From contig OZ242220.1 in NCBI GenBank assembly GCA_965206745.1, forward strand, positions 1,536,001 to 1,600,000: a DNA stretch of 64,000 nucleotides, written 5' to 3'. The translations under genes and the position numbers were made by a program. A model generated the notes under the pieces. That model saw nothing but the letters and a program-made list of their open reading frames with translations. It ran no database searches and was not told where the DNA came from. This document shows positions 20,346 to 61,665 of the stretch, in pieces; position 1 is the stretch's first letter; each line of letters begins with the position of its first letter. The DNA comes from Nitrosopumilus sp. Its GTDB lineage: Archaea > Thermoproteota > Nitrososphaeria > Nitrososphaerales > Nitrosopumilaceae.

Positions 20346-23300
20346 CTAGGTGGGGGGAGGATCCACACCGAGATAAAAGTTGTCAAAGAACGCTCTTTGG
20401 TTCCAGTCATCAATCCAAGTATCAATAAGGTAAAGTTGTACCCTTATATCATCTTGTTCTGATACGTGCTGTGAAATATCGGTACTAAATGTGCGCCATC
20501 CAGAATCAAATGTGGCGCCTTCAAACAGGATTATTCTATGCAGGGAGTTACCTGCAGTATCTTGTACTTCTATCACGGCATTAGTTATGTTTGAATAACG
20601 ATTGTCTGAGAGTGCCCTGTAATCGATGCCCAAGTACAGCGGATCAAGGGGATTATAGTTCTCAAGGGAAAGATCTCTTTGAATTCCGACATTGATTCCA
20701 ATCCCTTGGCCTCTGATCAGGACAGCTGATCCGAAGCTATCTGAACCTACAGGGAATATAACTCTGTCATTGGTGGAGGACAAGGATGCTTCCGACTTGG
20801 GGGTTGCTGATTTGAAAGACTCCCATGAATTAAGATTGTTAAAGCCATCAGTTATCGTTTCAAATCCAGAGGGGAGATAAACCGTTATTGAGAAGGAGTC
20901 CTGTACAAAGTTGTTGCTTGTATCAGTTGCAGTACATGTGACTAGCGTGGTGCCAATAAAAAATAAATCGCCTGAATTGTGATTACACTGTATCGTTGCT
21001 GGGTGGAGGTCTGTCGCAGTAGGACTTGCAAACTCTACAAAAGTGTCATTTGTAGATCTCACAGCGATATCATCGGGAAAGCTGGTAAAGACGGGATTTG
21101 TCGTATCCCGGAGGGTAGTAGTGTCAAGTATTGCGTTACCGGCACTGGAACCACTATCTGTTCTTGCCTGAACTCTAAAAGAATAATCCGTATCTGGGGT
21201 CAGGTCTGTCACATCAAAGAACGGTTCAGCAGTCAAGCCTACAAACGTCTGAGGGTCACCGTGGGGTGTAGTCATGACAAGCCGATAGGTCTGGAATGTG
21301 CCGCCGTTTAGGTCCGGCTGTATCCATTCCAATCTTAGGGAATTTGAAGCGATGTTAGTTGCAGACAGATCAAGAACCGGATCAGGGGGTGGCACCGGTA
21401 GAGTTCTTGTGTCAAGTATTGCGTTACCGGCACTGTAACCACTATTGGTTCTTGCCTGAACTCTAAAAGAATAATCCGTATCGGGAGTCAAGCCAGCTAC
21501 CTCAAAGAACGGCTCAGTAGTCAAGCCTACAAATGTCTGAGGGTCACCGTGGGGTGTAGTCATGACAAGCCGATAGGTCTGGAATGTGCCACCGTTTAGG
21601 TCCGGCTGTGTCCACTCCAATATGAGGGAAATTGAAGTGATGTTAGTTGCAGACAGATCAAGAACCGGATCAGGTAGTGGTAATGTTCTTGTGTCAAGTA
21701 CTGCGTTGCCACCACTGAAACCATTATCTGTTCTTGCCTGAACCCTAAAAGAGTAGTCAGTGTCAGGGGTCAGGCCTGTCACCTCATAGAACGGTTCAGC
21801 AGTCAAGCCTACAAACGTCTGAGGGTCTCCGTGGGGTGTAGTCATAACAAGCCGATAGGTCTGGAATGTGCCACCGTTTAGGTCCGGCTGTGTCCAAAAG
21901 AGAGTTAGTGAATCAGAGGTTATGTTAGTTGCAGACAGATCAAGAACCGGATCAGGTAGTGGTAATGTTCTTGTGTCAAGTACTGCGTTGCCACCACTGA
22001 AACCATTATCTGTTCTTGCCTGAACTCTAAAAGAATAATCCGTGTCGGGAGTTAGGTCTGTCACATCAAAGAACGGTTCAGCAGTCAAGCCTACAAACGT
22101 CTGAGGGTCTCCGTGGGGTGTAGTCATGACAAGCCGATAGGTCTGGAATGTGCCACCGTTTAGGTCCGGCTGTGTCCAAAAGAGAGTTAGTGAATCAGAG
22201 GTTATGTTAGTTGCAGACAGATCAAGAATCGGATCAGGGAGGGGTGCGATAACTGGAGGCATAACTATAACCGAAAAGGAATCCCGTGCAGAGTTGCTGT
22301 TTGCATCAGTTGCCATACATGTGACTAGAGTGCTGCCGGCAGGAAAGGAGTCTCCAGAATCATGACTGCACAATATGATTACCGGAAAGATGTCTGTCGC
22401 AGTCGGATTTTCAAACTCTACAGCATCACGATTCAGAAACGTCACGGTGATATCCTCTGGAAAACTGGTAAAGACAGGTTCTGTCGTATCCTGAATCCTC
22501 ACAGTCTGGGTATCACTAGCCGTATTGCCTGAATCATCAGTGGCAGTCCATGTAATTACAGTCGAGCCTACTGGGAAGGAATCAGGTGAATCATTTGTAA
22601 CTGTAACATCAGAATCTGCAATGTCACTGGCAGTAGCACTGCCAATATCCACAGGGGTCAGTTCATCTGTAGCTTCTGCAATTATACTGTCAGGGACTGT
22701 AATGGTTGGCTGTGTCGTGTCCCGAATTATGACTGTCTGTATTCCAGTTACCTCATTTTCAGTACTATCCTTGGCAGTCCACGTAACTCTAGTCTCACCT
22801 ACTGGAAAAGAGTCAGGTGCGTCATTTATCACAGTTATGGTATCAATATTGTCTGTGACTGTAGCAGTTCCTATATCTACGGGAGTCAGCACGCCTGTGG
22901 CCTCGGCTATAATGTCTGATGGTAGAATCAGCACAGGTCCTGCCGTACCCTGTACCGTCACTTTCTGGGTATCAGTTGCAGAATTAAAAGAGTTGTCAGT
23001 TGCAGTGTATGTTATAATGGTGATGCCGATTGGGAATGAGGTCGGGGCATCACTGGTGATAAGAGGTGCCCGATCAATCAGATCAGTTGCAGTTGCCACA
23101 CCGAGTTCAATCATGGTAAGCAAGCCGGTAGCCTCGATGGTAATATCATCAGGGGCTGTAATGGTTGGACTGGTCCTATCATTAACGATTACAAGCTGTG
23201 TATACAGAGCCGTATTTCCCGAGCTGTCCTTTGCAGTCCAAATGACAAAGGTTGAGCCGAGTCGGAAAGAGTCAGGTGAATTATTTGTAACTACAACATC

Positions 23301-25217
23301 TGGATCTGCAATGTCACGTGCAGTTACAGTATCAATCTCAACTGGGGTCAATAGTCCTGTGGCTTCTGCAAAGATGAGATTGGACTCTGGAGTATCAAAG
23401 TACGGATTTGTCGTATCCTGAATGGTGACTTTTTGTACTGCAGACACCTCATTCTCAGAGCTGTCCTTTGCAGTCCATGTCACCCTGGTCTCACCTAATG
23501 GAAAAGAGTCAGGTGCGTCATTTATCGCAGTTATGGTATCAATATTGTCTGTGACTGTGGCAGTTCCTATATCTACTGTAGTCAGCACGCCTGTGGCCTC
23601 AGCTGTAACATCAGATGGTAGAATCAGCTTGGGTCCCGTATCCCGTATCGTTATTTTCTGTGTGGCAGTTGCAGAGTTGCCAGAATCATCAGTTGCAGTG
23701 TATGTTATAATGGTGATGCCGATTGGAAACGAGGTCGGGGCATCGCTGGTAATAGTTGGCATTGGATCCACGGTATCAGTTGCAGTTGCCACGCCAAGTT
23801 GAATCATGGATATTAGACTGGTAGCCTCATGTATGATATCATCTGGTGGTATAATTACAGGATCAGTCGTATCCTGTATGGTGATAATTTGCGTATCATT
23901 TGCCATATCACCTTTGTCGTCCTGGGCAGTCCATGTTATGACAGTACTGCCAAGTGTAAACAAGTCCGGTGCATCATTTGTGATTGCAGCATCCCGATTA
24001 ATAGAGGCAGTACCCAGATCAACTAGGGTCAGCTCTCCTGTGGCCTCCAGAGTCAGGTCATCAGGGGCGGTAATCTCCAAGGGTATGAATCGGTTTAGCG
24101 TTACATCAAATGAGGCACTTGCCGTGTTGCCGACTGAATCTCGGGATATGCAAGTTACAGTGGTGGTACCAAATGGATAAACCACCCTTCCCGGCGGATC
24201 ACATATTACTGCAACTATACCGTCCACATTATCAACTGCAGTAGGCAGGGTAAAGGTGACAAGTGATGGGCGGGAGACATCCAGAATTATATCGTTAGGC
24301 ACATTTGAGATTACAGGCTTTACATCATCCCTTAGCTTTGCAATTAGTTGTATCGCATCAATCTGGATGATACTATTGTCATTCTCAAGTATTGGCATGA
24401 ATCTAAAGAAAAAGTCATCTCCTGCAAACTCGTCAAAGTTTATTGTAACTGGAAACCATTGCTCATATGCTGACTCACTCACAGTTACCATGTGATGGTC
24501 CTCCCAGTTATCAGCAGTTCGGGCCTGAACCATCATGACTTCTGTATTCAACGAATCCGTATCTAAAATCTGATCTCCAAACCAGACCCAAAAGACAAGG
24601 TCTGCACCATCATATGTGGACAGTTTGATTTCATCTGCTGCTTGTAACGGACAGGAACCGTCACACTCTCCGATGCTGATAACACGGTTGTTGGTATCGG
24701 CAAGCAGTGTGTCCATTGGACTCTCAATGCCCCACTGACTGTCTAGCGTCCATCCGTCGGTACTATCCCACTGTTGCTCAAAGAGTACAGTCTCTACAAA
24801 TCCAGAGGGTGATTCTGGCGGGGGCAGGACTATTGGGGGCTTGACTCTCAATGTCACTGGAACATCAATGGTTTCTGTGGCACTATCCTGCCCATCAGTG
24901 ACGTGAACTGAGAATGACATAGTGACAGTCTGCTCCATCACTGCAAAAGGTATTCTAAAAGAGGCTATTGCCTTTTCTGCATTTTGCAGTCTTACTGCAG
25001 GAGCTTCATTATCTATCTGAGACCATGAAAAGCCTAGAGAGTTATCATCAGTGTTTGCACTGGCAGTCAATGTTACTCTACCATCACTTTGGGTGACAGG
25101 TGCAATTGAGACAACAAGGTCTGCACCTGAACCATCAGGTGTTGCCACCTGTGCCTCAGAGAGGCCGACTGGAACTAGCATGAGGGTAAATAATAAGAGA
25201 AAAAGGGTTTTATTCAT
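20346..25217 (-). CDS. HYR-repeat surface protein P1 (signal peptide, PKD-like domain, jelly-roll domain, HYR repeats, 4 FN3, variable tip domain)
   Basis: Repeated DTTxP.I..P.D...EATG...FP.G.T.V.WTA.D.SGN HYR units, and four FN3 units (W.QPDLNGG...Y.L...L.PDTDYSFRVQA). Confidence 0.9.
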   Translation of the reverse strand: MNKTLFLLLFTLMLVPVGLSEAQVATPDGSGADLVVSIAPVTQSDGRVTLTASANTDDNSLGFSWSQIDNEAPAVRLQNAEKAIASFRIPFAVMEQTVTMSFSVHVTDGQDSATETIDVPVTLRVKPPIVLPPPESPSGFVETVLFEQQWDSTDGWTLDSQWGIESPMDTLLADTNNRVISIGECDGSCPLQAADEIKLSTYDGADLVFWVWFGDQILDTDSLNTEVMMVQARTADNWEDHHMVTVSESAYEQWFPVTINFDEFAGDDFFFRFMPILENDNSIIQIDAIQLIAKLRDDVKPVISNVPNDIILDVSRPSLVTFTLPTAVDNVDGIVAVICDPPGRVVYPFGTTTVTCISRDSVGNTASASFDVTLNRFIPLEITAPDDLTLEATGELTLVDLGTASINRDAAITNDAPDLFTLGSTVITWTAQDDKGDMANDTQIITIQDTTDPVIIPPDDIIHEATSLISMIQLGVATATDTVDPMPTITSDAPTSFPIGITIITYTATDDSGNSATATQKITIRDTGPKLILPSDVTAEATGVLTTVDIGTATVTDNIDTITAINDAPDSFPLGETRVTWTAKDSSENEVSAVQKVTIQDTTNPYFDTPESNLIFAEATGLLTPVEIDTVTARDIADPDVVVTNNSPDSFRLGSTFVIWTAKDSSGNTALYTQLVIVNDRTSPTITAPDDITIEATGLLTMIELGVATATDLIDRAPLITSDAPTSFPIGITIITYTATDNSFNSATDTQKVTVQGTAGPVLILPSDIIAEATGVLTPVDIGTATVTDNIDTITVINDAPDSFPVGETRVTWTAKDSTENEVTGIQTVIIRDTTQPTITVPDSIIAEATDELTPVDIGSATASDIADSDVTVTNDSPDSFPVGSTVITWTATDDSGNTASDTQTVRIQDTTEPVFTSFPEDITVTFLNRDAVEFENPTATDIFPVIILCSHDSGDSFPAGSTLVTCMATDANSNSARDSFSVIVMPPVIAPLPDPILDLSATNITSDSLTLFWTQPDLNGGTFQTYRLVMTTPHGDPQTFVGLTAEPFFDVTDLTPDTDYSFRVQARTDNGFSGGNAVLDTRTLPLPDPVLDLSATNITSDSLTLFWTQPDLNGGTFQTYRLVMTTPHGDPQTFVGLTAEPFYEVTGLTPDTDYSFRVQARTDNGFSGGNAVLDTRTLPLPDPVLDLSATNITSISLILEWTQPDLNGGTFQTYRLVMTTPHGDPQTFVGLTTEPFFEVAGLTPDTDYSFRVQARTNSGYSAGNAILDTRTLPVPPPDPVLDLSATNIASNSLRLEWIQPDLNGGTFQTYRLVMTTPHGDPQTFVGLTAEPFFDVTDLTPDTDYSFRVQARTDSGSSAGNAILDTTTLRDTTNPVFTSFPDDIAVRSTNDTFVEFASPTATDLHPATIQCNHNSGDLFFIGTTLVTCTATDTSNNFVQDSFSITVYLPSGFETITDGFNNLNSWESFKSATPKSEASLSSTNDRVIFPVGSDSFGSAVLIRGQGIGINVGIQRDLSLENYNPLDPLYLGIDYRALSDNRYSNITNAVIEVQDTAGNSLHRIILFEGATFDSGWRTFSTDISQHVSEQDDIRVQLYLIDTWIDDWNQRAFFDNFYLGVDPPPT
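21120..22240 (-). repeat. Four near-identical tandem FN3-coding repeats (period 282-288 bp)
   Basis: The anchor gcagacagatcaagaa occurs at 21361, 21649, 21931 and 22213. Confidence 0.9.
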
Positions 25218-25679: not shown

Positions 25680-28600
25680 TCAGCAGATCGTAGTCATGTT
25701 GTATGCGTGTATCAGTTCCTGTGTATCGATATACATATCAGAGGACTCGTCAAGTGATTCAATCAATTTGCATGCCTGTGTCTGATCGTATTGTGAGATT
25801 TGCAGAGACAGTTCTTGGAGTGATGTCAGTTGTATATCTGCCTCACCACTGATATTTCCAGATGGAGGAGGATCCGTACCGAGATATAAGTTGTCAATGG
25901 ACAACCTATGATACCAGTTTCCCCCTGAGCCATCCCAGAAATATAATCGTACCGCGACATCAGCTCGTTTTGCTATGTACTGTGAAATATCGGTACTAAA
26001 TGTGCGCCATCCTGAATCCGATGTACCACCGTGAATCAGTCTTGTCTGGTACAGGTGGTGGCCATGTGTATCTGTTAGTTGAAGCTTAACATTGGTTGCT
26101 CCGTAACGAGTCATCGATGATTGTGCCCTATAATCAACGCTGAGGTATAATGGATCATCTGGATTATGATTCTCAAGGGAGATGTATCTAGTAATTCCAG
26201 TAAAGGTGCCATGCCCATCACCTCTCATTAGGGCAGATGGTGCGGGGTTGCCGTCAGTTGCAGTGAGTTCAAGTATGTAATTGTTAAAGAAAACGGTGCT
26301 CACACCTGTTGATTTGCCAAGATTCCAAGAATCAAGATTTGCAAAGTCATCTGTTATGGTTTCAAATACAGGGACAGTAACCGTTACTGAAAAGGAGTCC
26401 TGTACAAAGTTGTCGTTTGCATCAGTTGCAATGCATATGACTAGCGTGCTGCCGACATGGAACGAATCGCCTGAATTATTACTACACAGTACGGTTACCG
26501 GAAAGATGTCAGTTGCAGTAGGAGTTTCAAACTCTACAGAAATACTATTTTTAGATTTCACAGTGATATCATCGGGGAAACTGGTAAAGACGGGCTTTGT
26601 CGTATCCTGGAGGGTTGTAGTGTCAAGTATTACATTACCGCCACTGTAACCGACGTCTGTTCTTGCCTGAACTCGGAAAGAATAATCTGTATTGTGGGTC
26701 AAACCAATTACCTCAAAGAACGGTTCGGCAGTCAAACCCACAAGTGTCTGTGGATCTCCGTGAGGCGATGTCATGACAAGCCGATAAGTCTGGAGTGTGC
26801 CACCGTTTAGGTCTGGTTCTGTCCATTCCAATCTTAGTGAACTAGACGTTATGTCAGTTGCAGACAGATCAAGAACAGGATCAGGTGGAGTTATCAGCGT
26901 AATAACTTGAGGCATAACTATAACCGAAAAGGAATCCAATACAGAGTTATCGTTTGCATCAGTTGCAGTACATGTAACTAGCGTGCTGCCGGCAGGGAAG
27001 GAATCACCTGAATCATAATCACACAGTACAGTTACTGTAAAGATGTCTGCCGCAGTAGGAGTTTCAAACTCTACAGTATCACGATTCAGATATGTCACAG
27101 TGATATCCTCTGGAAAACTGGTAAAGATAGGCCTTGTCGTATCCTGAATCCTCACAGTCTGGGTATCACTAGCCGTGTTCCCTGAATCATCAGTTGCAGT
27201 CCATGTAATCACAGTCGAGCCTACTGGGAAGGAGTCAGGTGAATCATTTGTAACTGTAACATCGAGGTCTGCAATGTCACTGGCAGTAGCACTGCCGATA
27301 TCCACAGAGGTTAATTCATCTGTAGCCTCTGCAATTATACTGTCAGGGACTGTAATGGTTGGCTGTGTAGTATCCCGAATTATAACTGTCTGTATGCCAG
27401 TTACCACATTTTCTGCATTATCCTTGGCAGTCCACGTAACTCTAGTCTCACCTACCGGGAAGGAGTCAGGTGCGTCATTAATTGCAGTTAGGGAGTCAAC
27501 ATTGTCTGTAACTGTGGCAGTTCCTATATCCAACGGAGTCAGCACGCCTGTGGCTTCAGATGTAACATCAGATGGCAGAATCAGCATAGGTCCTGTCGTA
27601 TCCTGTACCGTCACTCTCTGGGTATCAGTTGCAGAATTGTAAGAGATATCAGTTGCAGTATAAGTTATTATAGTGACACCGATTGGGAACGAAGTCGGAG
27701 CATCACTAGTAATGAGGGGTGCCCGATCAACCAGATCAGTTGCAGTTGCCACACCAAGTTGAATCATGGTAAGCAGGCTGTCAGCCTCGATGATAATATC
27801 ATCAGGAGCTGTAATGATTGGACTGGTCCTATCATTAATGATTACAACTTGGTCATATCGAGCCGTATTTCCCGAGCTGTCCTTGGCCATCCAAATGACA
27901 GGGGTTGAGCCGAGTCGGAAAGAGTCAGGTGCGTCATTGGTAACTACAACATCTGGGTCTGCAATATCATTTGCAGGTATGGGATCAAGTTCAAGTGGGG
28001 TCAATATTCCTGTGGCTTCAGCATAAAAGTTGTAGGATTCCGGAGTATCAAAGTACGGATTTGTAGTATCATGAATGGTGACTTTTTGTACTGCAGACAC
28101 CTCATTCTCAGAGCTGTCCTTTGCAGTCCATGTCACCATGGTCTCACCTACTGGGAAAGAGTCAGGTGCGTCATTAATTGCAGTTAGGGAGTCAATATTG
28201 TCTGTAACTGTGGCAGTTCCTATATCTACTGTAGTCAGCACACCTGTGGCCTCTGCTGTAACATCAGATGGCAGAACCAGCATAGGTCCTGTATCCCGTA
28301 TCGTTATGTTCTGTATGGCAGTTGCAGAGTTACCAGAGTCATCAGTTGCAGTATATGTTATAATGGTGACACCGATTGGGAACGAGGTTGGAGCATCGCT
28401 GGTGATGGTGGGCATTGCATCGACAGTATCTGTTGCAGTTGCAGTACCCAGTTGAATCATGGATATTAGACTGGTAGCCTCATGTATGATATCATTTGGT
28501 GGTATAATTACAGGATCAGTCGTATCCTGTATGGTGATAATTTGCGTATCATTTGCCACATCACCTTTGTCGTCCTGGGCAGTCCATGTTATGACAGTGC

Positions 28601-29864
28601 TGCCAAGTGGAAACAAGTCAGGTGCATCATTTGTGATTGTGGCATCCCGATTAATAGAAGCAGTACCCATATCAACTAGGGTCAGTTCCCCTGTGGCCTC
28701 TAGAATCAGGTCATCAGGGGCGGTAATCTCCAAGGGGACAAATTTGTTTAGCGTAATGTCAAATGAGGCACTTGCCGTGTTGCCGACTGAATCTTGGGAT
28801 ATGCAAGTTACAGTAGTGGTACCAAATGGATAGATCACCCTTCTTGGCGGATCACATATTACTGGAACTGTGCCGTCCACATCATCAACTGCAGTAGGCA
28901 GGGTAAAGGTGACAATTGATGGGCGGAAGACATCCAGAATTATATCGTTAGGAACATTTGAGATTACAGGCTTTACATCATCCCTTATCTTTGCAATTAG
29001 TTGTATCGCGTCAATCTGGATTATGCTATTGTCATTCTCAAGTATTGGCATGAATCTAAAGAAAAATTCATCTCCTGCAAATTCGTCAAAGTTTATTGAA
29101 ACTGGAAACCATTGCTCATATACTGACTCACCGACAGTTATCATGTACTTGTCCACCCAGTTATCAGCAGTTCGTGCCTGAACCATTACGACCTCGGTAT
29201 TCAACGAGTCCGTATCTAAAATCTGATCTCCAAACCAGACCCAGAAGACAAGGTCTGCACCATCATATGCGGACAGTTTGATTTCATCTGCTGCTTGTAA
29301 CGAACAGGAGCCGTCACACTCTCCGATGCTGATAACACGGTTGTTGGTATCGGCAAACAGTGTATCCATTGGACTCTCAATGCTCCACTGGCCATCAGGT
29401 GTCCATCCATCGGTATTATCCCACTGTTGCTCAAAGAGTACAGTCTCTACAAATCCAGAGGGTGATTCTGGTGGGGGTATGGCCATTGAGGGCTTGACTG
29501 GCAATGTTACTGGGACATCAATTGTTTCTGTGGCACTATCTTGTCCATCAGTGACGCTGACTGAAAACGACATAGTGACAGTCTGCTCCATCACTGCAAA
29601 AGGTATTCTAAAAGAGGCTATTGCCTTTTCTGCATTTTGCAGTCTTACTGCAGGAGCTTCATTATCTATCTGAGACCATGAAAAACCTAGAGAATTATCA
29701 TCAGCGTTTGTACTAGCAGTCAATGTTACTCTACCATTACTTTGGGTGACAGGTGCAATGGAGACACTCAGATCTGAACTATCAGGTGTTGCCACCTGTG
29801 CCTCAGAGAGGCCGACTGGAACTAGCATGAAGATAAACAATAGTAGAAATGGAATTTTGTTCAT
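25680..29864 (-). CDS. HYR-repeat surface protein P2 (1 FN3, variable tip domain, intact Cys-containing tail)
   Basis: 1394 aa, colinear with P1 but with a single FN3 domain. Confidence 0.9.
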   Translation of the reverse strand: MNKIPFLLLFIFMLVPVGLSEAQVATPDSSDLSVSIAPVTQSNGRVTLTASTNADDNSLGFSWSQIDNEAPAVRLQNAEKAIASFRIPFAVMEQTVTMSFSVSVTDGQDSATETIDVPVTLPVKPSMAIPPPESPSGFVETVLFEQQWDNTDGWTPDGQWSIESPMDTLFADTNNRVISIGECDGSCSLQAADEIKLSAYDGADLVFWVWFGDQILDTDSLNTEVVMVQARTADNWVDKYMITVGESVYEQWFPVSINFDEFAGDEFFFRFMPILENDNSIIQIDAIQLIAKIRDDVKPVISNVPNDIILDVFRPSIVTFTLPTAVDDVDGTVPVICDPPRRVIYPFGTTTVTCISQDSVGNTASASFDITLNKFVPLEITAPDDLILEATGELTLVDMGTASINRDATITNDAPDLFPLGSTVITWTAQDDKGDVANDTQIITIQDTTDPVIIPPNDIIHEATSLISMIQLGTATATDTVDAMPTITSDAPTSFPIGVTIITYTATDDSGNSATAIQNITIRDTGPMLVLPSDVTAEATGVLTTVDIGTATVTDNIDSLTAINDAPDSFPVGETMVTWTAKDSSENEVSAVQKVTIHDTTNPYFDTPESYNFYAEATGILTPLELDPIPANDIADPDVVVTNDAPDSFRLGSTPVIWMAKDSSGNTARYDQVVIINDRTSPIITAPDDIIIEADSLLTMIQLGVATATDLVDRAPLITSDAPTSFPIGVTIITYTATDISYNSATDTQRVTVQDTTGPMLILPSDVTSEATGVLTPLDIGTATVTDNVDSLTAINDAPDSFPVGETRVTWTAKDNAENVVTGIQTVIIRDTTQPTITVPDSIIAEATDELTSVDIGSATASDIADLDVTVTNDSPDSFPVGSTVITWTATDDSGNTASDTQTVRIQDTTRPIFTSFPEDITVTYLNRDTVEFETPTAADIFTVTVLCDYDSGDSFPAGSTLVTCTATDANDNSVLDSFSVIVMPQVITLITPPDPVLDLSATDITSSSLRLEWTEPDLNGGTLQTYRLVMTSPHGDPQTLVGLTAEPFFEVIGLTHNTDYSFRVQARTDVGYSGGNVILDTTTLQDTTKPVFTSFPDDITVKSKNSISVEFETPTATDIFPVTVLCSNNSGDSFHVGSTLVICIATDANDNFVQDSFSVTVTVPVFETITDDFANLDSWNLGKSTGVSTVFFNNYILELTATDGNPAPSALMRGDGHGTFTGITRYISLENHNPDDPLYLSVDYRAQSSMTRYGATNVKLQLTDTHGHHLYQTRLIHGGTSDSGWRTFSTDISQYIAKRADVAVRLYFWDGSGGNWYHRLSIDNLYLGTDPPPSGNISGEADIQLTSLQELSLQISQYDQTQACKLIESLDESSDMYIDTQELIHAYNMTTIC

Positions 29865-52661: not shown

Positions 52662-55600
52662 TCAGCAGGTAGTAGTCATGTTGTATGCGCGTATCAGGTC
52701 CAGCGTATCGGCATACGAATCTGAGGACTCGTCAAGGGACTCGATTAATCCGCACACCTGCACCTGGTCGTACTGGGATATTTGCAGTGAGAGCTCCTGA
52801 AGCGGTGTCAGCTGTGCATCTGCCTCGATGATACTTCTAGATGGCAAAGGTTCCGTACCGAGATAAAAGTTGTCAAAGGACGTCTTTTTGCCCCAAGGGT
52901 ATATCCAGGGATCAGAAAGGTAGAGTTGTACCGTGATATCGTCTTGTCCTGATACGTACTGTGAAATGTCTTTACTAAATGTGCGCCATCCAGAATCAAG
53001 TGTGCCACCTGCAATCATGTATGTATTGTACAGGGAGTTGCCGTCAGTATCCGTTATTTGCAGTATGGCATTAGTTACTGTTGAAATAGTACCTAGTGAG
53101 GTTGCCCTGTAATCGACGCTGAGGTGCAGTGAATCATCCGGATCATGGTTCTCAAGGGAGATGTCTCTATTAATTCCGGCATCTGCTCCAAACCCGTTGC
53201 CTCTAATCAGGGCAGATGATGCGGGATTGCCGTCAGTTGCAGAGAGTTCAAGTATGTAATTGTTGTAACGCACGTGGCCTTGCCATGTGGGGGGACTGTG
53301 TATTGATTTGACAAACTCCCAGGAATCAAGGTTTGCAAAGTCATCAGTTATGCTTGCAAATATAGCGGCATCAATTGTAACTGAGAAGGAGTCCTGTACA
53401 AAGTTGTCGTTTGCATCAGTTGCAGTGCATGTGACTAGAGTGCTGCCGACAGGGAAAGAATCTCCCGAATCATGACTACACAGTATGGTGACTGGGAAGA
53501 CGTCAGTTACAGTCGGAGTTTCAAACTCGACAACATCACGATTCGCATGCGTCAGGGCGATATCATCTGGGAAACTGGTAAAGACGGGCTTTGTCGTATC
53601 CTGAACCCTCACAGTCTGGGTATCATTGGTAACATTATCTGAATCATCAGTTGCAGACCATGTAATAGTAGTCGAGCCTAGAGGGAAGGAGTCAGGGGCA
53701 TCATTGGTAACTGTAACATCAGAATCTACAATATCGCTGGCAGTCGCACTGCCAATATCCACGGGGGTTAATTCATCTGTAGCCTCTACAATGAGACTGT
53801 GAGGTACTGTAACTATTGGGCTTGTCGTGTCCCGTATGGTGACTGTCTGTATGGCAGTTGCCGTATTTCCAGAGATGTCCATGGCAGTCCACGTAACTCT
53901 AGTCTCACCTAGTGGAAAAGAGTCGGGGGAATCATTTGTTGCAGTTATGGTATCAATATTGTCTGTGACTGCTGCAGTTCCTATATCAACAAGAGTCAGC
54001 GCACCTGTGGCCTCGGCTATAACATCAGATGGCAGAATCAGCATGGGTTCTGTCGTATCCTGTATCGTCACTTTCTGGGTATCAGTTGCAGAATTATCAA
54101 AGAAATCAGTTGCAGTGTAGGTTACTATGGTGACACCAATTGGGAAGGAGGTCGGGGCATCGCTGGTGATGCGGGGTGTAGGATCAACTAGGTCAGTTGC
54201 AGTTGCGACACCCAGATCAATCATGGTAAGCAGGGTGTCAGTCTCGATGGTAATATCATCAGGGGCTGTAATGGTTGGATTTGTGCTATCATCAATGACT
54301 ACAATTTGGTCATATCGAGCCGTATTTCCGGAACTGTCTCGGGCAGTCCAGATGACAAAGGTTGCAGCAATTGGAAAAGAGTCAGGTGCGTTATTGGTAA
54401 CTGCAACATCAGGGTCTGCAATATCATGTGCAGTTACAGTGTCAATCTCAAGGGGGGTAAATCTTCCTGTGGCCTCTGCAAAGACGATGTTGGATGCCGG
54501 AATGTCAAAGTACGGGTCTGTAGTATCCCGTATGGTGACTGTCTGTATGGCAGTTACCGTGTTCTCAGAGATGTCAGTTGCAGTCCACGTCACCAGAGTG
54601 TCACCTACGGGGAAGGAGTCAGGCGCGTCATTTGTTGCAGTCAGGGTATCAATATTGTCTGTAACTGTCGCAGTTCCTATATCCACAGGGGTCTGTACAC
54701 CTGTGGCCTCTACGGTAACATCAGATGGCAGAACCAGCACAGGCTCTGTATCATTTATGGTTATCGTTTGCGTGGCAGTAACAGAGTTGCCAGAGTCATC
54801 AGTTGCAGTGTATGTCACTATGGTTATGCCGATTGGAAATGAGTTTGGGGCATTACTGGTAATAGTTGGCATTGCATCTACTGTATCTGTTGCAGTGGCT
54901 GCTCCCAGATGAATCATCGATATCAGGCTGGTGGCCTCAAGTGTGACATCACCTGGTGCCGTAATTACGGGATCTGTCGTATCCTGTATGAGAATGGTTT
55001 GCGTGTCATTTATGATGCCTCCTTTGTCGTCCCGGGCAGTCCATGTTATGATGGTGGTGCCAAGTGGAAACAGACCAGGTGCGTCATTTGTGACTGTGGC
55101 ATTACGGTTGATGGAGGCAGTGCCCAGATCAACTAGGGTCAGCTCCCCTGTAGCCTCCAGAGTCAGGCCATCAGGGGCGGTAATCTCCAGGGGTATGAAT
55201 TTGGTTATCGTAATGTCAAATGAGGCACTTGCCACATTGCCTGCCATATCCTGAGTTGTGCAAGTTACAATAGTGGTACCAAATGGGTGAATCACGCCGC
55301 TTGGAACATTGCATTCCACTGCAATTTGACCATCCAAGTTGTCAACTGCTGCCGGTCTGGTAAAAGGGACAACTGATGGACGGAGTAGATCCAGCACTAT
55401 ATCCTCAGGTACCTCTGATATTACAGGCTTTGCATCGTCCATTGTCTTTGCAATTAGTTGTACTGCATCAATCTGGATGGTGCCTTTATCCCCCTCAAGT
55501 AGCGGTGTTAATCTGAAGAAAAAGTCATTGCCTGCAAACTCGTCCAAGTTTACCGTAACTTGGAACCATCGCTGGTATGTCGACTGGCCCACGATTATAG

Positions 55601-56324
55601 CGTGCTTGTTCTCCCAGGTGCCATCTGGAGTCGCTGCGACCTCGAGGTTCAGCGAGTCCGTACTTGCAATCTGATCTCCAAACCAGACCCAGAAGACAAG
55701 GTCTGCACCGTCATATGTGGATAGATCCACCATGTCTGTAAAGTGCAGGGGACAGGAACCGTTGCACTCTTTGATGCTGATGATGCGGTTGTTGGTATCG
55801 ACAGGCAACATGTCTGTGGATCTCTGTATATTCCACTGGCTGGATAATATCCATCCGTCAGTACCATCCCACTGCTGCTCAAAGAATATCATCTCTTCAA
55901 CTCCAGGTGTCGGTTCCCGTGTGGGTATGACTATGGGGGACTTTGTAGTAAGTGTCACTGGAACATCAATTGTCTTGCCGGCATTGTTATCTCCATCAGT
56001 GACGTTCACTGAGAAGGCAAGGGTTGTGGCCAGCTCCCTTACTATATAGGGCACCCGAAAAGATGCCGTACTACTGTCTGCATTTTGCAGCATCACAGCA
56101 GGTGCATCACCGTCTGTCTGGGACCATGAGAATGTCAAGGGATTATCACTAGTTGCACTGGCAGTCAGTGTCACTATGTCATCGCTCTGGTAACTTTGGC
56201 TGACAGGTGCAATGGAGAGATTCAGATCTGCATCTGAACTGTCAGGTGTTCCAACTTGAGCTTCTGCGAGGCCGACTGGGACTAGCATGAAAATAAATAA
56301 TAAGAACAGTGTTTTGTTCATCAA
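52662..56324 (-). CDS. HYR-repeat surface protein P3 (no FN3, variable tip domain, intact tail)
   Basis: 1220 aa, colinear with P1 and P2. Confidence 0.9.
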   Translation of the reverse strand: MMNKTLFLLFIFMLVPVGLAEAQVGTPDSSDADLNLSIAPVSQSYQSDDIVTLTASATSDNPLTFSWSQTDGDAPAVMLQNADSSTASFRVPYIVRELATTLAFSVNVTDGDNNAGKTIDVPVTLTTKSPIVIPTREPTPGVEEMIFFEQQWDGTDGWILSSQWNIQRSTDMLPVDTNNRIISIKECNGSCPLHFTDMVDLSTYDGADLVFWVWFGDQIASTDSLNLEVAATPDGTWENKHAIIVGQSTYQRWFQVTVNLDEFAGNDFFFRLTPLLEGDKGTIQIDAVQLIAKTMDDAKPVISEVPEDIVLDLLRPSVVPFTRPAAVDNLDGQIAVECNVPSGVIHPFGTTIVTCTTQDMAGNVASASFDITITKFIPLEITAPDGLTLEATGELTLVDLGTASINRNATVTNDAPGLFPLGTTIITWTARDDKGGIINDTQTILIQDTTDPVITAPGDVTLEATSLISMIHLGAATATDTVDAMPTITSNAPNSFPIGITIVTYTATDDSGNSVTATQTITINDTEPVLVLPSDVTVEATGVQTPVDIGTATVTDNIDTLTATNDAPDSFPVGDTLVTWTATDISENTVTAIQTVTIRDTTDPYFDIPASNIVFAEATGRFTPLEIDTVTAHDIADPDVAVTNNAPDSFPIAATFVIWTARDSSGNTARYDQIVVIDDSTNPTITAPDDITIETDTLLTMIDLGVATATDLVDPTPRITSDAPTSFPIGVTIVTYTATDFFDNSATDTQKVTIQDTTEPMLILPSDVIAEATGALTLVDIGTAAVTDNIDTITATNDSPDSFPLGETRVTWTAMDISGNTATAIQTVTIRDTTSPIVTVPHSLIVEATDELTPVDIGSATASDIVDSDVTVTNDAPDSFPLGSTTITWSATDDSDNVTNDTQTVRVQDTTKPVFTSFPDDIALTHANRDVVEFETPTVTDVFPVTILCSHDSGDSFPVGSTLVTCTATDANDNFVQDSFSVTIDAAIFASITDDFANLDSWEFVKSIHSPPTWQGHVRYNNYILELSATDGNPASSALIRGNGFGADAGINRDISLENHDPDDSLHLSVDYRATSLGTISTVTNAILQITDTDGNSLYNTYMIAGGTLDSGWRTFSKDISQYVSGQDDITVQLYLSDPWIYPWGKKTSFDNFYLGTEPLPSRSIIEADAQLTPLQELSLQISQYDQVQVCGLIESLDESSDSYADTLDLIRAYNMTTTC

Positions 56325-56751: not shown

Positions 56752-59700
56752 TCAGCAGGCAGTGGTCATGTTGTATGCGCGTATCAGTTTTAACGTATCG
56801 GCATAGATATCTGCAGACTCGTCAAGTGACTCGATTAATCCGCATACCTGTGCCTGATTATATTGTGAGATTTGCAGGGACAGTTCTTGGAGTGGTGTCA
56901 GCTGCATATCGGTATCACTGCTGATGTTTCCAAATGGAGGAGGATTCACACCGAGATAAAAGTTGTCAAAGAATGCTCTCTGCTGCCAGTCTTGATTCCA
57001 GGAATCATAGAGGTATAGTCGTACCCTGATACTATCTTGTCCTGATACGGACTGGGAAATATCAGTACCAAGTGTGCGCCATCCCGAATCCAATGTGCCG
57101 CCTTCAACTAGGATTATCCGGTCCAGGAAATAGCCATCTGCATCTATTATCTCAAGCCCGGCATTGGTTATGGTTGAACTACTAGACAGTGATTGTGCCT
57201 TGTAATCTACGCCGAGGTATAGCGGACCACCTGAGGTATAGTTTACAAGGGAAAAGTCTCTAATAATTCCGGCAATGGCTCCAAACCCGTCACCACTAAT
57301 CAGGGCAGATGATGTAGAGTTGCCGTCAGTTGCTGCGAGTTCAAGTGTGTAGTTGTTAAAGTGTTTAAATTCCACAGGGGTGGGTAGTAGTTTGACAAGC
57401 TCCCAGGAATCAAGGTCTGCAAAGTCATCAGTTATGGTTTCAAATATAGAGGAACCAACTGTTACTGAGAAAGAGTCCCGCACAGAGTTGTCGTTTGCAT
57501 CAGTTGCGATACATGTGACTAGCGTGCTGCCAATAAAAAATAAACCGCCTGAGTCATGACTACACAGCACGGTTACTGGAAAGATGTCAGTTGCAGTCGG
57601 AGTTTCAAACCTTACAAAAGTGTCATTTCCAGATATCACGGTGATATCATCTGGAAAGCTGGTAAAGACCGGCCTTGTCGTATCCTCAATGGTGACTGTC
57701 TGTATGGCAGTTGCCGTATTTCCAAAGATGTCCATGGCAGTCCACGTTACACGAGTCTCACCTACTGGAAACGAGTCAGGTGAGTCATTTGTTGCATTTA
57801 TGGTATCAACATTGTCTGTAACTGTGGCAGTTCCAATATCCAACGTGGTCAGCACGCCTGTGGCCTCAGATAGGATGTTTAATGGCAGAATCAGCACAGG
57901 TTCTGTCGTATCCTGTACCGTCACCCTCTGGATATCAGTTGCAGAATTGTTAAGGAAATCAGTTGCAATGTATGTTACTATGGTCGTACCGATTGGAAAG
58001 GAGGTTGGGGCATCGCTGATGATGCGGGGTGAAGGATCAACTAGATCAGTTGCAGTTGCAACACCCAGATCAATCATGGTAAGCAGGCCGTCAGCCTCGA
58101 TGGTAATATCATCAGGGGCTGTAATGGTTGGACTGGTATTATCACTAAGAACTATAACTTGGTCATACCGAGCCGTATTTCCAGAGTCATCCTCAGCTAT
58201 CCAAGTGACAAAGGTCGCACCAAGTGGGAAGGAGTCAGGTGAATCATTTGTGACTGTGACATCTGGGTCTGCAGTATCATTTGCAGGTATGGGGTCAAGC
58301 TCAAGGGAAGTCAATATTCCTGTGGCATTTACAAAGAGGACATTGGACTCTGGGATATCAAAGTATGGATTTGTAGTATCCTGAATCCTTACAGTCTGGG
58401 TATCACTGGCAGTATTGTTTGAGTCATCCCTTGCAGTCCATGTAATAATAGTCTCGCCTACTGGGAAGGAGCCAGGTGAATCATTTGTGACTGTGACATC
58501 AGGGTCTGCAATATCACTGGCAGTGGCATTGCCAATATCTACGGGAGTCAGCACGCCTGTGGCCTCTACTGTAACATCAGATGGTAAAATCAGTGTAGGA
58601 TTTGTCGTATCCTGTACCGTTACTCTCTGAATATCAGTTGCAGAATTGTTAAAGCTATCAATTGCAGTGTATGTCACTATGGTCGTACCGATTGGAAAGG
58701 AGGTTGGGGCATCGCTGGTGATGAAAAGTGCCGGATCAGCCAGATCAGTTGCATTTGCGACACCCAGATCAATCATGGTAAGCAGGCCGGTAGCCTCGAT
58801 GGTGATATCATCAGGGGCTGTAATGACTGGATTTATGATATCATTAATGACTACAATTTGGTCATATCTAGCCGTATTTCCAGAATCGTCCTCGGCTATC
58901 CAAGTGACAAAGGTTGGGCCAATTGGGAAAGAGTCAGGTGCGTTATTTGTAACTGTGACATTAGAATCTGCAATATCATTTGCAGGTATGGGGTCAAGCT
59001 CAAGTGGGGTAAATACTCCTGTGGCATTTGCAAAGATGAGATTGGACTCTGGGGTATCAAAGACAGGGGCTGTCGTATCCTGAATGGTGACTGTCTGTAT
59101 GCCAGTTGCCGTATTTCCAGAATTGTCCCTTGCAGTCCATGTTACTATAGTATCACCTACTGGAAACGAGTCAGGTGCGTCATTTGTTGCATTTATGGTA
59201 CCAGCATTGTCTGTAACTGTGGCAGTTCCTATATCTACAGGAGTCAGGACGCCTGTAGCCTCTGCTGTAACATCAGATGGCAGAACCAGCATGGGTCCTG
59301 CCGTATCCAGTACCGTTACTCTCTGGGTATCTGTTGCAGAGTTGCCAGAGTCATCAGTTGCAGTGTAGGTTATTGTAGTTGTACCAATTGGGAAGAAGGC
59401 CGGAGCATTACTGGTAACAGTCGGCATTGCATCTACGGTATCTGTTGCAGTTGCAGTACCCAGATCAATCATGGTAAGCAGACCCGTAGCCTCAAGTGTG
59501 AGATCAGCTGGTGCCACAATTACGGGATCAGTCGTATCCTGTATGGTGATAATTTGCGTATCATTTGCTATGCCTCCTATGTCATCCTGGGCAGTCCATG
59601 TTATGGTGGTGTTGCCAAGTGCAAACAGGCCAAGTGCATCATTTGTGATTGTGGCATCTCTGTTGGTAGTGGCATTGCCCGGATCAACTGGGGTCAGCTC

Positions 59701-60393
59701 CCCTGTAGCCTCCAGAATCAGGTCATCAGGGGCGGTAATCTCCAAGATGAATGAGTTTAGCGTTACATCAAATGAGGCACTTGCCGTATTGCCTGCAGAA
59801 TCTTGGGCCATGCAAGTTACAGTAGTGGTACCAAATGGATAAGTCGCCCCACTTGGCGGATCACACATCACTGCAACTGTACCGTCCACATTGTCAACTG
59901 CAGTAGGCTGGGCAAAGAAGAGAAGTAACGGGCGGGAGCTAATCCGTATTATGTCTTGAGGCACATTTGAGATTACAGGCTTTACATCATCCCCTGTATC
60001 GGGAGTCAGTGTTACTGGAACATCAATAGTACCTATGACATTATTCTGTCCATCAGTGATGCTGACTGAGAATGACAGAGTTGCATTATGCACACTCGTT
60101 GCAAAAGGTACATTAAAAGAGGCCACATGCATGTCTGCATTTCGCAGGGTTACTAGGGGAGCTCCGTTGGATATCTGGGACCATGAGAACATCAAAGGAC
60201 CAGTATTACTGAATGCACTGGCATTGAGACGTACTAGTTCACCACTTTGAAAAGTTGGGTTGTTAGTAGATAAAAAAAAGGCAATCAAGTCTGCATCTGT
60301 ACCATTGCCAGGTGTTGCCTCCTGTGCCTCTGCGAGGCCGACTGGAACTAGCATGAAGATAAATAATAATAGAAAAGGTGTTTTGCTCATCAA
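56752..60393 (-). CDS. HYR-repeat surface protein P4 (lacks the N-terminal jelly-roll domain, no FN3, sequon-rich)
   Basis: 1213 aa. It goes directly from the PKD-like domain to DDVKPVISNVP. Confidence 0.9.
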   Translation of the reverse strand: MMSKTPFLLLFIFMLVPVGLAEAQEATPGNGTDADLIAFFLSTNNPTFQSGELVRLNASAFSNTGPLMFSWSQISNGAPLVTLRNADMHVASFNVPFATSVHNATLSFSVSITDGQNNVIGTIDVPVTLTPDTGDDVKPVISNVPQDIIRISSRPLLLFFAQPTAVDNVDGTVAVMCDPPSGATYPFGTTTVTCMAQDSAGNTASASFDVTLNSFILEITAPDDLILEATGELTPVDPGNATTNRDATITNDALGLFALGNTTITWTAQDDIGGIANDTQIITIQDTTDPVIVAPADLTLEATGLLTMIDLGTATATDTVDAMPTVTSNAPAFFPIGTTTITYTATDDSGNSATDTQRVTVLDTAGPMLVLPSDVTAEATGVLTPVDIGTATVTDNAGTINATNDAPDSFPVGDTIVTWTARDNSGNTATGIQTVTIQDTTAPVFDTPESNLIFANATGVFTPLELDPIPANDIADSNVTVTNNAPDSFPIGPTFVTWIAEDDSGNTARYDQIVVINDIINPVITAPDDITIEATGLLTMIDLGVANATDLADPALFITSDAPTSFPIGTTIVTYTAIDSFNNSATDIQRVTVQDTTNPTLILPSDVTVEATGVLTPVDIGNATASDIADPDVTVTNDSPGSFPVGETIITWTARDDSNNTASDTQTVRIQDTTNPYFDIPESNVLFVNATGILTSLELDPIPANDTADPDVTVTNDSPDSFPLGATFVTWIAEDDSGNTARYDQVIVLSDNTSPTITAPDDITIEADGLLTMIDLGVATATDLVDPSPRIISDAPTSFPIGTTIVTYIATDFLNNSATDIQRVTVQDTTEPVLILPLNILSEATGVLTTLDIGTATVTDNVDTINATNDSPDSFPVGETRVTWTAMDIFGNTATAIQTVTIEDTTRPVFTSFPDDITVISGNDTFVRFETPTATDIFPVTVLCSHDSGGLFFIGSTLVTCIATDANDNSVRDSFSVTVGSSIFETITDDFADLDSWELVKLLPTPVEFKHFNNYTLELAATDGNSTSSALISGDGFGAIAGIIRDFSLVNYTSGGPLYLGVDYKAQSLSSSSTITNAGLEIIDADGYFLDRIILVEGGTLDSGWRTLGTDISQSVSGQDSIRVRLYLYDSWNQDWQQRAFFDNFYLGVNPPPFGNISSDTDMQLTPLQELSLQISQYNQAQVCGLIESLDESADIYADTLKLIRAYNMTTAC

Positions 60394-60771: not shown

Positions 60772-61665
60772 TTGAACTATGAGGAACTCGAGCATTTCAT
60801 TTCAGAAAAGATGTCAATGACGCACGTCTACCAGCCAGTCATGATAAAGACCCTCCTAGAGTCAGATAACTGTGCCACAGTGGATGATATTGCAAAAGAG
60901 TTTATCAACTGGGACTACTCGCTGCTGGAATACTACAAGAGGAGGGTCATGGTATGGCCAAAGAGGACGCTGACAGGACACAAGATAGTCAGTTACAGCA
61001 AGAATGTCTTTACTTTACTACTTGATGATGACGTCACACCAGAGCAGAAGAGACACCTAGTCGAGATATGTGACGGCAGAACAGACCAGTACGTTGAGAA
61101 CTATCCTGACCGCCTTGGTACAAAGGCCAACAGGGATGCAACACTCCAGATACAGCGGTATGATATAATGGCCAGGGCAAAGGGGATATGTGCGGCATGC
61201 GGATGCAGAGACAAGGCCCTTGATGTCGACCACATCCTTCCGGTGAACAAGGGCGGGACAGATGAGGCCTCCAACCTGCAGGCCCTGTGCTTTACGTGCA
61301 ACAGGCAGAAGAGGGATCGTGACAAAACGGACTTTGTCATGTGGGCAAAGCGGCTCAAAGACAGGGATTCTGAATGTGCGCTGTGTAACGTGGAACCGAT
61401 AAAATCAAATGAGCTGACATCTACTGTTCGTGCCGTGCAGCCACGCTCCAAGCTGCACTCGCTGGTATTTCCAAAGAGGCATGTGGGTACATTCTTTGAT
61501 ATGATTCCTGCAGAAAGGAACCACTGCCTTGAGATGGTATCTGAAGTGAGGGAGGAGATCATGGAGAGGGACAATACAGTCAGGGGATTCTGCGTAAACT
61601 TTGACTCTGGAAACATTGCAGGCAAGCACCAGCACTGTCATATCCATGTCGTTCCAAGCTACTAG
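60772..61665 (+). CDS. HNH endonuclease - HIT hydrolase fusion
   Basis: HNH part: CAAC...DVDHILP...GG....NLQALCFTCN. HIT part: CALC...HSLVFPKRHV...HCHIHVVP (HxHxH triad). There is an additional N-terminal domain (MTHVYQPVMIKTLL). Confidence 0.9.
   Translation: MNYEELEHFISEKMSMTHVYQPVMIKTLLESDNCATVDDIAKEFINWDYSLLEYYKRRVMVWPKRTLTGHKIVSYSKNVFTLLLDDDVTPEQKRHLVEICDGRTDQYVENYPDRLGTKANRDATLQIQRYDIMARAKGICAACGCRDKALDVDHILPVNKGGTDEASNLQALCFTCNRQKRDRDKTDFVMWAKRLKDRDSECALCNVEPIKSNELTSTVRAVQPRSKLHSLVFPKRHVGTFFDMIPAERNHCLEMVSEVREEIMERDNTVRGFCVNFDSGNIAGKHQHCHIHVVPSY

Follow-up and report, generated by a model that had tools for sequence, protein, structure and literature searches.

P4 is an open reading frame (ORF) at 56752..60393 on the minus strand of the 64,000-nucleotide stretch of Nitrosopumilus sp. 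contig OZ242220.1 analysed here (the window). It belongs to a lineage-specific family of predicted secreted, presumably rod-like surface proteins built from HYR repeats. P4 contains significantly more N-glycosylation sequons (Asn-x-Ser/Thr, N-x-S/T) than expected by chance, the sequon-rich state is derived within the family, and gained Asn residues are concentrated in sequon context. The control clades of the family lack this pattern, and the genome encodes an AglB homologue. The statistics support selection acting on the sequon itself in the P4 lineage, as judged from the sequences, and selection for N-glycosylation sites is the most likely explanation, which we hold to be fairly probable.

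Sequon excess in P4 and its orthologues

P4 has 27 sequons, 26 of them beyond residue 30, compared to 15.0 ± 3.4 expected from 5,000 shuffles of the whole protein (z 3.57, p 0.0004). Local shuffles in blocks of 77 or 25 amino acids (aa) gave very similar values (z 3.6–3.7). The original prediction, made from the letters of this window, had proposed that P4 systematically gained sequons by point substitution, and the density over the shuffled expectation agrees with it. The other seven paralogues in the genome showed z-scores between −2.2 and +0.2, and the 18 family members outside the clade of P4 and its orthologues lay between −3.4 and +1.2. P4 was flat for four motifs used as controls (D-x-[ST], Q-x-[ST], N-[ST] and N-x-x-[ST]).

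The enrichment was also found in the two orthologues of P4, namely, P0006 (1,288 aa, 26 sequons, z 3.1) and P0008 (832 aa, 19 sequons, z 3.0), which are encoded on contigs of other genomes and share the N-terminus of P4, its domain loss and many of its sequons. On the sequences compared, the trait is one of an orthologous clade in three genomes and not of P4 alone. When 41 representative genomes were searched for close orthologues, 20 matched including the host genome G000, but identity stayed at or below 55% in all the others and was 29–43% for the longer matches. Polarity was therefore taken from the paralogues and three further genomes. The protein search had found HYR family members on three other contigs, among them those of P0006 and P0008.

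In the tree of the collinear parts, P4, P0006 and P0008 are sister to the sequon-poor P0041 and P0047 and nested in the family. From this position, the clade-specific sites and the gain rates, the sequon-rich state is judged to be derived and not ancestral. Each sequon site was compared with 17 to 30 outgroup units. Twelve of the 27 sequons of P4 occurred in none of the outgroups, eight were rare (<25%), five common and two conserved. Distinct clade-specific sites numbered nine in each protein of the P4 clade and 0–3 in the proteins of the other 11 clades. Taken together, the three proteins of the P4 clade have sequons at 32 distinct sites. Fifteen of these sites are clade-specific, and many are present in just one or two of the three orthologues, so that sequon turnover continues on separate sub-branches.

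Gains and losses were counted by parsimony on the unit, N-terminal and C-terminal trees. P4-only branches had 29 gains and 6 losses per approx. 481 expected substitutions, while the rest of the family had 78 gains and 25 losses per approx. 4,150 substitutions. The gain rate per substitution was thus 3.2 times higher on the P4-only branches than elsewhere (binomial p 1e-6). With the same count, the control motif [ST]-x-N reached a ratio of 1.35 (p 0.16) and D-x-[ST] one of 0.68. The N-terminal scaling underestimates the substitutions in the other paralogues, a bias that runs against the claimed P4 excess.

Context bias and codon routes of the gained residues

A site was considered sequon-competent if it lies two residues before Ser or Thr. 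With every unit counted, 15 of 53 P4-derived substitutions at competent sites were to Asn, compared to 13 of 206 at other sites (odds ratio (OR) 5.9, p 3.6e-5). After de-duplication, the values were 12/49 and 12/194 (OR 4.9, p 5e-4), and for the union of the P4 clade 18/81 and 19/294 (OR 4.1, p 1e-4). Ser/Thr gains two residues after Asn were biased in the same way with 10/25 vs 51/350 (OR 3.9, p 0.003). The 11 control clades, when pooled, showed no such bias, neither for Asn (47/533 vs 152/1,978; OR 1.16, p 0.22) nor for Ser/Thr (25/148 vs 378/2,363; OR 1.07). The P4 clade was above the controls at competent sites only (p 7e-4) and did not differ from them elsewhere (p 0.55). The higher Asn content of the P4 clade is therefore explained by sequon positions. 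Density, context and polarity point the same way, so that selection on the sequon as such gains statistical support.

The codons of P4 were compared with those of the paralogues of its own genome. ACT>AAT was found at five distinct sites. GAR>AAT, GGC>AAC and AGG>AAT require two nucleotide exchanges, and further routes were GAT>AAT, AGT>AAT, CAT>AAT with ATT>ACT, GCA>TCA, CCC-GCA>TCT-ACA and CAT-GAT>TAT-ACC. The sites had been claimed to arise by different substitutions that create the Asn, create the Thr or remove a Pro; the routes are indeed diverse, and together with the two-nucleotide changes they argue against a single mutational bias.

All example pairs of the original prediction were found in the alignments, namely (P4/paralogue) RLNAS/TLTAS, GNAT/GTAS, GNTT/GSTV-GTTI, TINAT/TITAI-TLTAT (twice), FANAT and FVNAT/FAEAT, SNVT/PDVV, VANAT/VATAT, GNATAS/GSATAS, SNNT/SGNT, ANDT/ANDI, NNYT/NNYI, GNST/GNPA and VNYT/ENHD-ENYN. 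Not all of them can be read as gains of P4, though: GNTT, TNDS, NNYT, VNYT, the RLNAS site and SNVT are polymorphic across the wider family. The earlier comparison had used only the three paralogues within the window, which are among the sequon-poorest members.

A second HYR family with the same pattern

A second thaumarchaeal HYR family, of the NHL/SGL type with approx. 1,600–1,750 aa, is distantly related to that of P4. Its member P0063 (1,761 aa) has 53 sequons, corresponding to 3.0 per 100 aa (z 4.2), and P0086, which is 63% identical to P0063, has 2.0 per 100 aa. The 23 collinear relatives mostly have 0.3–0.9 sequons per 100 aa, with three at 1.2–1.3. P0063 showed the same context bias as P4 with Asn at 37/156 competent vs 33/442 other sites (OR 3.9, p 3e-7). 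The bias was weaker for P0086 (OR 2.35, p 0.005). The 23 relatives even avoid Ser/Thr at +2 of Asn (46/295 vs 1,224/4,608; OR 0.51, p 1.5e-5). From the sequences, the P0063/P0086 lineage is an independent replicate of the sequon switch. An archaeal origin of P0006, P0008, P0063 and P0086 is inferred from their named relatives.

N-glycosylation machinery and proposed mechanism

The presence of aglB had been put forward as a check, and a search aimed at STT3/AglB found one homologue (PF02516, 94.8 bits) at G000:C1:1852229-1852942. Its ORF comprises 710 aa and contains the catalytic motif WWDYG. The host genome (1.86 Mb, 41% G+C) encodes an archaeal AmoA, and the host is an ammonia-oxidising archaeon; among the relatives of its HYR proteins, those that are named bear the label Nitrosotenuis, Nitrosopumilaceae or Thaumarchaeota.

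In the favoured explanation, selection in the lineage of P4, P0006 and P0008 would favour substitutions that make Asn-x-Ser/Thr, be it by an Asn at position −2 of a Ser/Thr already present, by a Ser/Thr after an existing Asn or, in one case, by removal of a Pro. The outcome is a density of approx. one per 45 residues, with the sequons situated in loops and at the ends of strands of the β-sandwich units; this placement counts in favour of the explanation. The protein would first be exported by Sec, and AglB would then move a lipid-linked glycan onto the sequon Asn. P4 would then appear on the surface as a variant heavily coated with glycans, next to paralogues that are sparsely glycosylated or unglycosylated. 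Both the occupancy of the sequons and the glycan as the target of selection are inferred. What the glycans would be for is speculative; candidates are a defence against viruses or proteases, hydration and a changed binding after the loss of an N-terminal domain.

Publications give a mixed picture of N-glycosylation in close relatives (PMC11153153 vs PMC12153357). PMC11153153 describes 17 glycan densities on the S-layer protein of N. maritimus (NmSLP), located on Asn with Ser/Thr at +2, and its authors suggested that the glycans protect from phages. In Ns. viennensis, N-x-S/T sites are glycosylated on the S-layer protein and on multicopper oxidases, according to PMC12153357. The same paper quotes one glycosite per 30–40 residues for the S-layers of Sulfolobales, a value that the potential density of P4 approaches.

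P4 resembles NmSLP and the S-layer protein of Ns. viennensis in its (predicted) export, its many Ig-like β-sandwich domains and its origin from the same phylum. As in N-glycosylated S-layer proteins, Asn-x-Ser/Thr sites would lie on outward-facing domains, and AglB-type machinery is present in the genome. Unlike these proteins, P4 is not a lattice protein but one of several HYR-repeat paralogues. [quoted passage not shown] The density is far above that of the Ns. viennensis S-layer with one site per approx. 240 residues (PMC12153357). Compared to the S-layer systems, glycosylation itself is known, and the contrast among paralogues and the apparently recent gain are new in P4. A full-text literature search found no report of paralogue-specific sequon accumulation in archaea.

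Viral envelope glycoproteins evolve a glycan shield by stepwise sequon gain. P4 would be similar in the stepwise gain of N-x-S/T by point substitutions along several routes and in exposed loops. Still, it is a cellular archaeal protein with no immune system involved, and the likeness is an analogy of pattern only.

Weighing of alternative explanations

Several points weigh against selection for glycosylation sites. In a genome-wide composition test, P4 ranked only third out of 1,085 ORFs of ≥200 aa (Poisson p 0.0033), and by arithmetic on these 1,085, approx. 3.6 ORFs are expected by chance at this value. Only 12 of the 27 sequons are clade-specific, and they correspond to nine distinct sites with three copies made by repeat duplication, because a block of unit types 5-6-7 was duplicated inside P4. 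P4, P0006 and P0008 are not independent, and P4 is a mosaic of the two orthologues. The polarity method was simple, with majority-consensus ancestors or parsimony instead of a full probabilistic reconstruction, and parsimony ran on midpoint-rooted FastTree topologies of short units. The reverse motif [ST]-x-N was mildly raised in P4 (z approx. 2), indicating a mild structural periodicity. Among 99 HYR matches outside the family, four reached z ≥3, including P0019 and P0046, which are named as Ruminiclostridium, a genus not known for N-x-S/T N-glycosylation. According to PMC12153357, N-glycosylation was undetected in Np. piranensis despite aglB and eight S-layer sequons, and the abundance of AglB was low. 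Finally, P4 is known from DNA alone and its expression is predicted.

The genome-wide rank, the three duplicates among the twelve specific sequons, the mosaic and the fact that most gains are common to the three orthologues would all fit chance combined with the choice of a striking example: one of approx. 12 clades would be rich in sequons by accident, with a signal inflated by common descent, by duplication within the gene and by gene conversion. Yet the de-duplicated p values of 5e-4 to 1e-4 and the branch p of 1e-6 still hold after a 12-fold correction. The two separate routes, by a new Asn and by a new Ser/Thr, are each biased, the control motifs are flat in the gain count, and the second HYR family repeats the pattern (p 3e-7). 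Chance can hence be considered as quite improbable.

The bacterial excess bears on whether the sequon could be favoured for its structure. In this explanation, Asn-x-Thr turns stabilise the boundaries of the HYR sandwich, or an avoidance in the family was lifted, and the proteins are never glycosylated. The bacterial HYR proteins with z-scores of 2.9–3.7 and no known N-glycosylation, the missing detection in Np. piranensis and the mild enrichment of the reverse motif are in agreement with it. So is the placement of the sequons on the AlphaFold2 (AF2) model, on which 13 columns with a sequon in HYR units of the clade were mapped: six lie in loops, five at a terminal residue of a strand and two inside strands. 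The last two are sites shared across the family. In type-5 units, one gain at a strand end took the place of the Glu in the E-A-T-G motif, a residue that hardly varies otherwise. However, the bacterial-type proteins P0019, P0020, P0032 and P0046 owe their z-scores to one conserved G-N-x-[ST] column at profile position 64–65, which repeats in 10–13 of 16–21 units, and not to many new sites. The 19 HYR sequons of P4 are scattered over 15 different relative positions. Context bias is absent from paralogues with this fold (OR 1.16), and a lifted avoidance would restore the expectation and not lead to a z-score of +3.5. The avoidance of Ser/Thr at +2 of Asn in the relatives of P0063 (OR 0.51, p 1.5e-5) would be difficult to understand if the sequon itself were not recognised. 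A purely structural preference is therefore regarded as unlikely.

Composition z-scores alone are not specific for selection on glycosylation, and the case therefore rests on the comparisons inside the family. Shuffles as the only test were rejected as insufficient in view of the rank of P4 and of the bacterial HYR proteins with z ≥3.

The mosaic structure was also considered with regard to recombination. Units 3–6 of P4 are closest to P0008 (tree distances 0.00–0.07) and units 8–11 to P0006 (0.03–0.12). In P0006, 12 units follow each other as 1-2-3-7-5-6-7-8-5-6-7-9. These relations imply recombination or conversion among alleles plus the loss of one unit in P4. Sequon-rich segments could accordingly have been imported from a diverged donor that was already rich in them, with no selection in the P4 lineage, and the region of the family also holds restriction-modification and HNH genes. 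No donor was found, though: outside the family, 40 related genomes gave ≤52% identity over short stretches. The clade-specific sites are single-codon differences from the paralogues inside otherwise conserved units, and an import would merely shift selection to the donor. Its probability appears slighter still than that of chance.

Possible meaning of the sequon switch

Archaeal surface proteins are well known to be N-glycosylated, which is mostly described protein by protein; the evolutionary dynamics of this modification have hardly been studied. The sequences suggest opposing selection on sites in sister proteins, as sequons are avoided in most and accumulated in few. A wider reading, which is tentative and in our view less likely than not to hold in full, is that sequon content is a switchable selected trait. 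HYR proteins of ammonia-oxidising archaea would be purged of sequons by default, with at least two independent flips to accumulation (P4 clade and P0063/P0086), and naked and glycan-coated rods would occur in one cell as a counterpart of the viral shield. The default purging is supported by the mean z-score of −1.3 for the 99 HYR matches outside the family and by the OR of 0.51 among the relatives of P0063. The flips could plausibly be driven by viruses or proteases that target HYR proteins.

If the sequons are occupied, the family would offer natural matched glycan-poor and glycan-rich scaffolds in one organism for studying N-glycans on proteins other than those of the S-layer. The bias in Asn and +2 Ser/Thr gains against paralogue controls would become a transferable statistic for uncultured archaea, and there would be indirect evidence on AglB activity in Nitrosopumilaceae-like ammonia oxidisers, on which publications disagree. 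If occupancy is refuted, P4 would be a caution that strong statistics for sequons are possible in the absence of glycans.

Gene and domain layout of P4

The P4 ORF is intact with 1,213 codons and a TTG start, followed by ATG at codon 2. The database copy P0005 is identical to P4, begins at this ATG and has 1,212 aa; the true start is thus probably the ATG. Contigs of two runs, X1 and X2, hold exact pieces of P4 that are broken at repeats, which supports its sequence. The hydrophobic N-terminus (60322..60393, minus strand; MSKTPFLLLFIFMLVPVGLAEA/Q) resembles a signal peptide. Read off the translation, the segment ends with AEA/Q, and the feature is kept across the family. Export to the outer face of the membrane is predicted from it.

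An N-terminal domain of approx. 110 aa with three sequons follows (59992..60321, minus strand), as assigned from the family alignment and a profile match in P0004. It is weakly PKD-like in the paralogue P1w (PF22352 with 24 bits in P0004, under the cut-off of 27 bits). Its NGT and NAT sequons are clade-specific, while the NAS site is also present in 6/17 outgroups. The C-terminal region of approx. 233 aa (56752..57453, minus strand), delimited by alignment, contains five sequons, of which only GNST is clade-specific. It comprises an all-β-looking domain and a conserved tail of approx. 55 aa that ends with N-M-T-T-x-C. In Pfam, no match was obtained for the terminal domains of P4.

The central part (57454..59991, minus strand) carries 19 of the 27 sequons. 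Pfam HYR (PF02494) matched eight stretches with 211 bits (cut-off 21.7 bits), and a hidden Markov model built from the repeats of P4 and its family resolved 11 units of approx. 77 aa each in the type order 1-2-3-4-5-6-8-5-6-7-9. The usual order in the family is 1-2-3-(4/7)-5-6-(4/7)-8-9. The AF2 model of units 4–6 is an all-β string of β-sandwiches with a mean predicted local distance difference test score (pLDDT) of 95.5. Foldseek matched it to tandem cadherin repeats, to an Aeromonas RTX adhesin repeat (6xi1) and to SraP (4m00) with a probability of 1.00 each. The TM-scores were low (0.27–0.45) because the inter-domain geometry differs. From the modelled string and these matches, P4 looks like a rod-shaped surface protein, similar to other HYR proteins and to tandem Ig-like adhesin stalks such as cadherin ectodomains, the RTX extender and SraP. 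It differs from bacterial HYR proteins with one conserved sequon-like column by its scattered sequons. The original prediction had spoken of selection for a glycan-shielded adhesin. Selection on the sequon holds statistically, but the label adhesin derives from resemblance of the modelled fold and is unproven, as is a protective role of the shield.

HYR paralogues and lost domain

The genome encodes eight large HYR paralogues, four of them within the window, besides fragments. P3w (52662..56324, minus strand; 1,220 aa) is the tandem neighbour of P4 and has 11 sequons (z −0.3). P2w (25680..29864, minus strand; 1,394 aa) has six sequons (z −2.2) and P1w (20346..25217, minus strand; 1,623 aa) nine (z −1.9) as well as four fn3 repeats recognised by Pfam.

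All other members contain approx. 165 aa between the N-terminal domain and unit 1 that are missing in P4, P0006 and P0008. In P3w, they correspond to a domain of approx. 168 aa (55440..55943, minus strand). The loss of an N-terminal jelly-roll domain by P4 had been claimed; the loss is real and includes both orthologues, but the fold label is unproven. The domain of P3w had no Pfam match even at E ≤5, and its AF2 model reached a pLDDT of 50.2 only. Its neighbours in the language model, Cleaved_Adhesin, DUF5017, MAM and CBM_4_9, scored 0.84–0.89, under the lead level of 0.9.

In the C-terminal tail (56752-56920, minus strand), an N-M-T sequon lies five residues before the C-terminal Cys in 12/12 tail-bearing outgroups. 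P1w, P0017, P0031, P0047 and P0008 are members without the tail. A function of the tail as shared sorting signal was rejected, as no other ORF of the genome has it and it is restricted to the family.

Flanking genes and sequons in other surface proteins

The paralogue cluster is flanked by an ORF for an HNH endonuclease-HIT fusion (60772-61665) and by a type I restriction-modification methylase gene, of which the window holds the start (62717-64000). The G+C content falls to 32% in the last 2 kb of the window, which suggests that this flank is a variable genomic island.

Sequon content varies widely among the surface proteins of the host. The most sequon-enriched ORF of the genome lies in the window as well (11419-17178, minus strand). 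It has 1,919 aa, no Pfam match and 22 sequons compared to 9.5 expected (Poisson p 0.0004, rank 1/1,085), and it adjoins a gene for a T2SSE/FlaI-like ATPase (9838-11349). A subtilase at C1:303325-307194 is enriched with 26 vs 13.6 expected. Strong depletion was seen in several very large repeat proteins with Big_9, He_PIG, MORN/RHS or no Pfam match, e.g. with 4 vs 16.8 or 23 vs 44.9 expected (G000:C1:109261-114144, 618649-630573, 196652-199735, 329450-332587 and 372633-381551). The giant ORF of 5,218 aa in the window (30304-45960, minus strand) is slightly under expectation with 41 vs 51.8 sequons.

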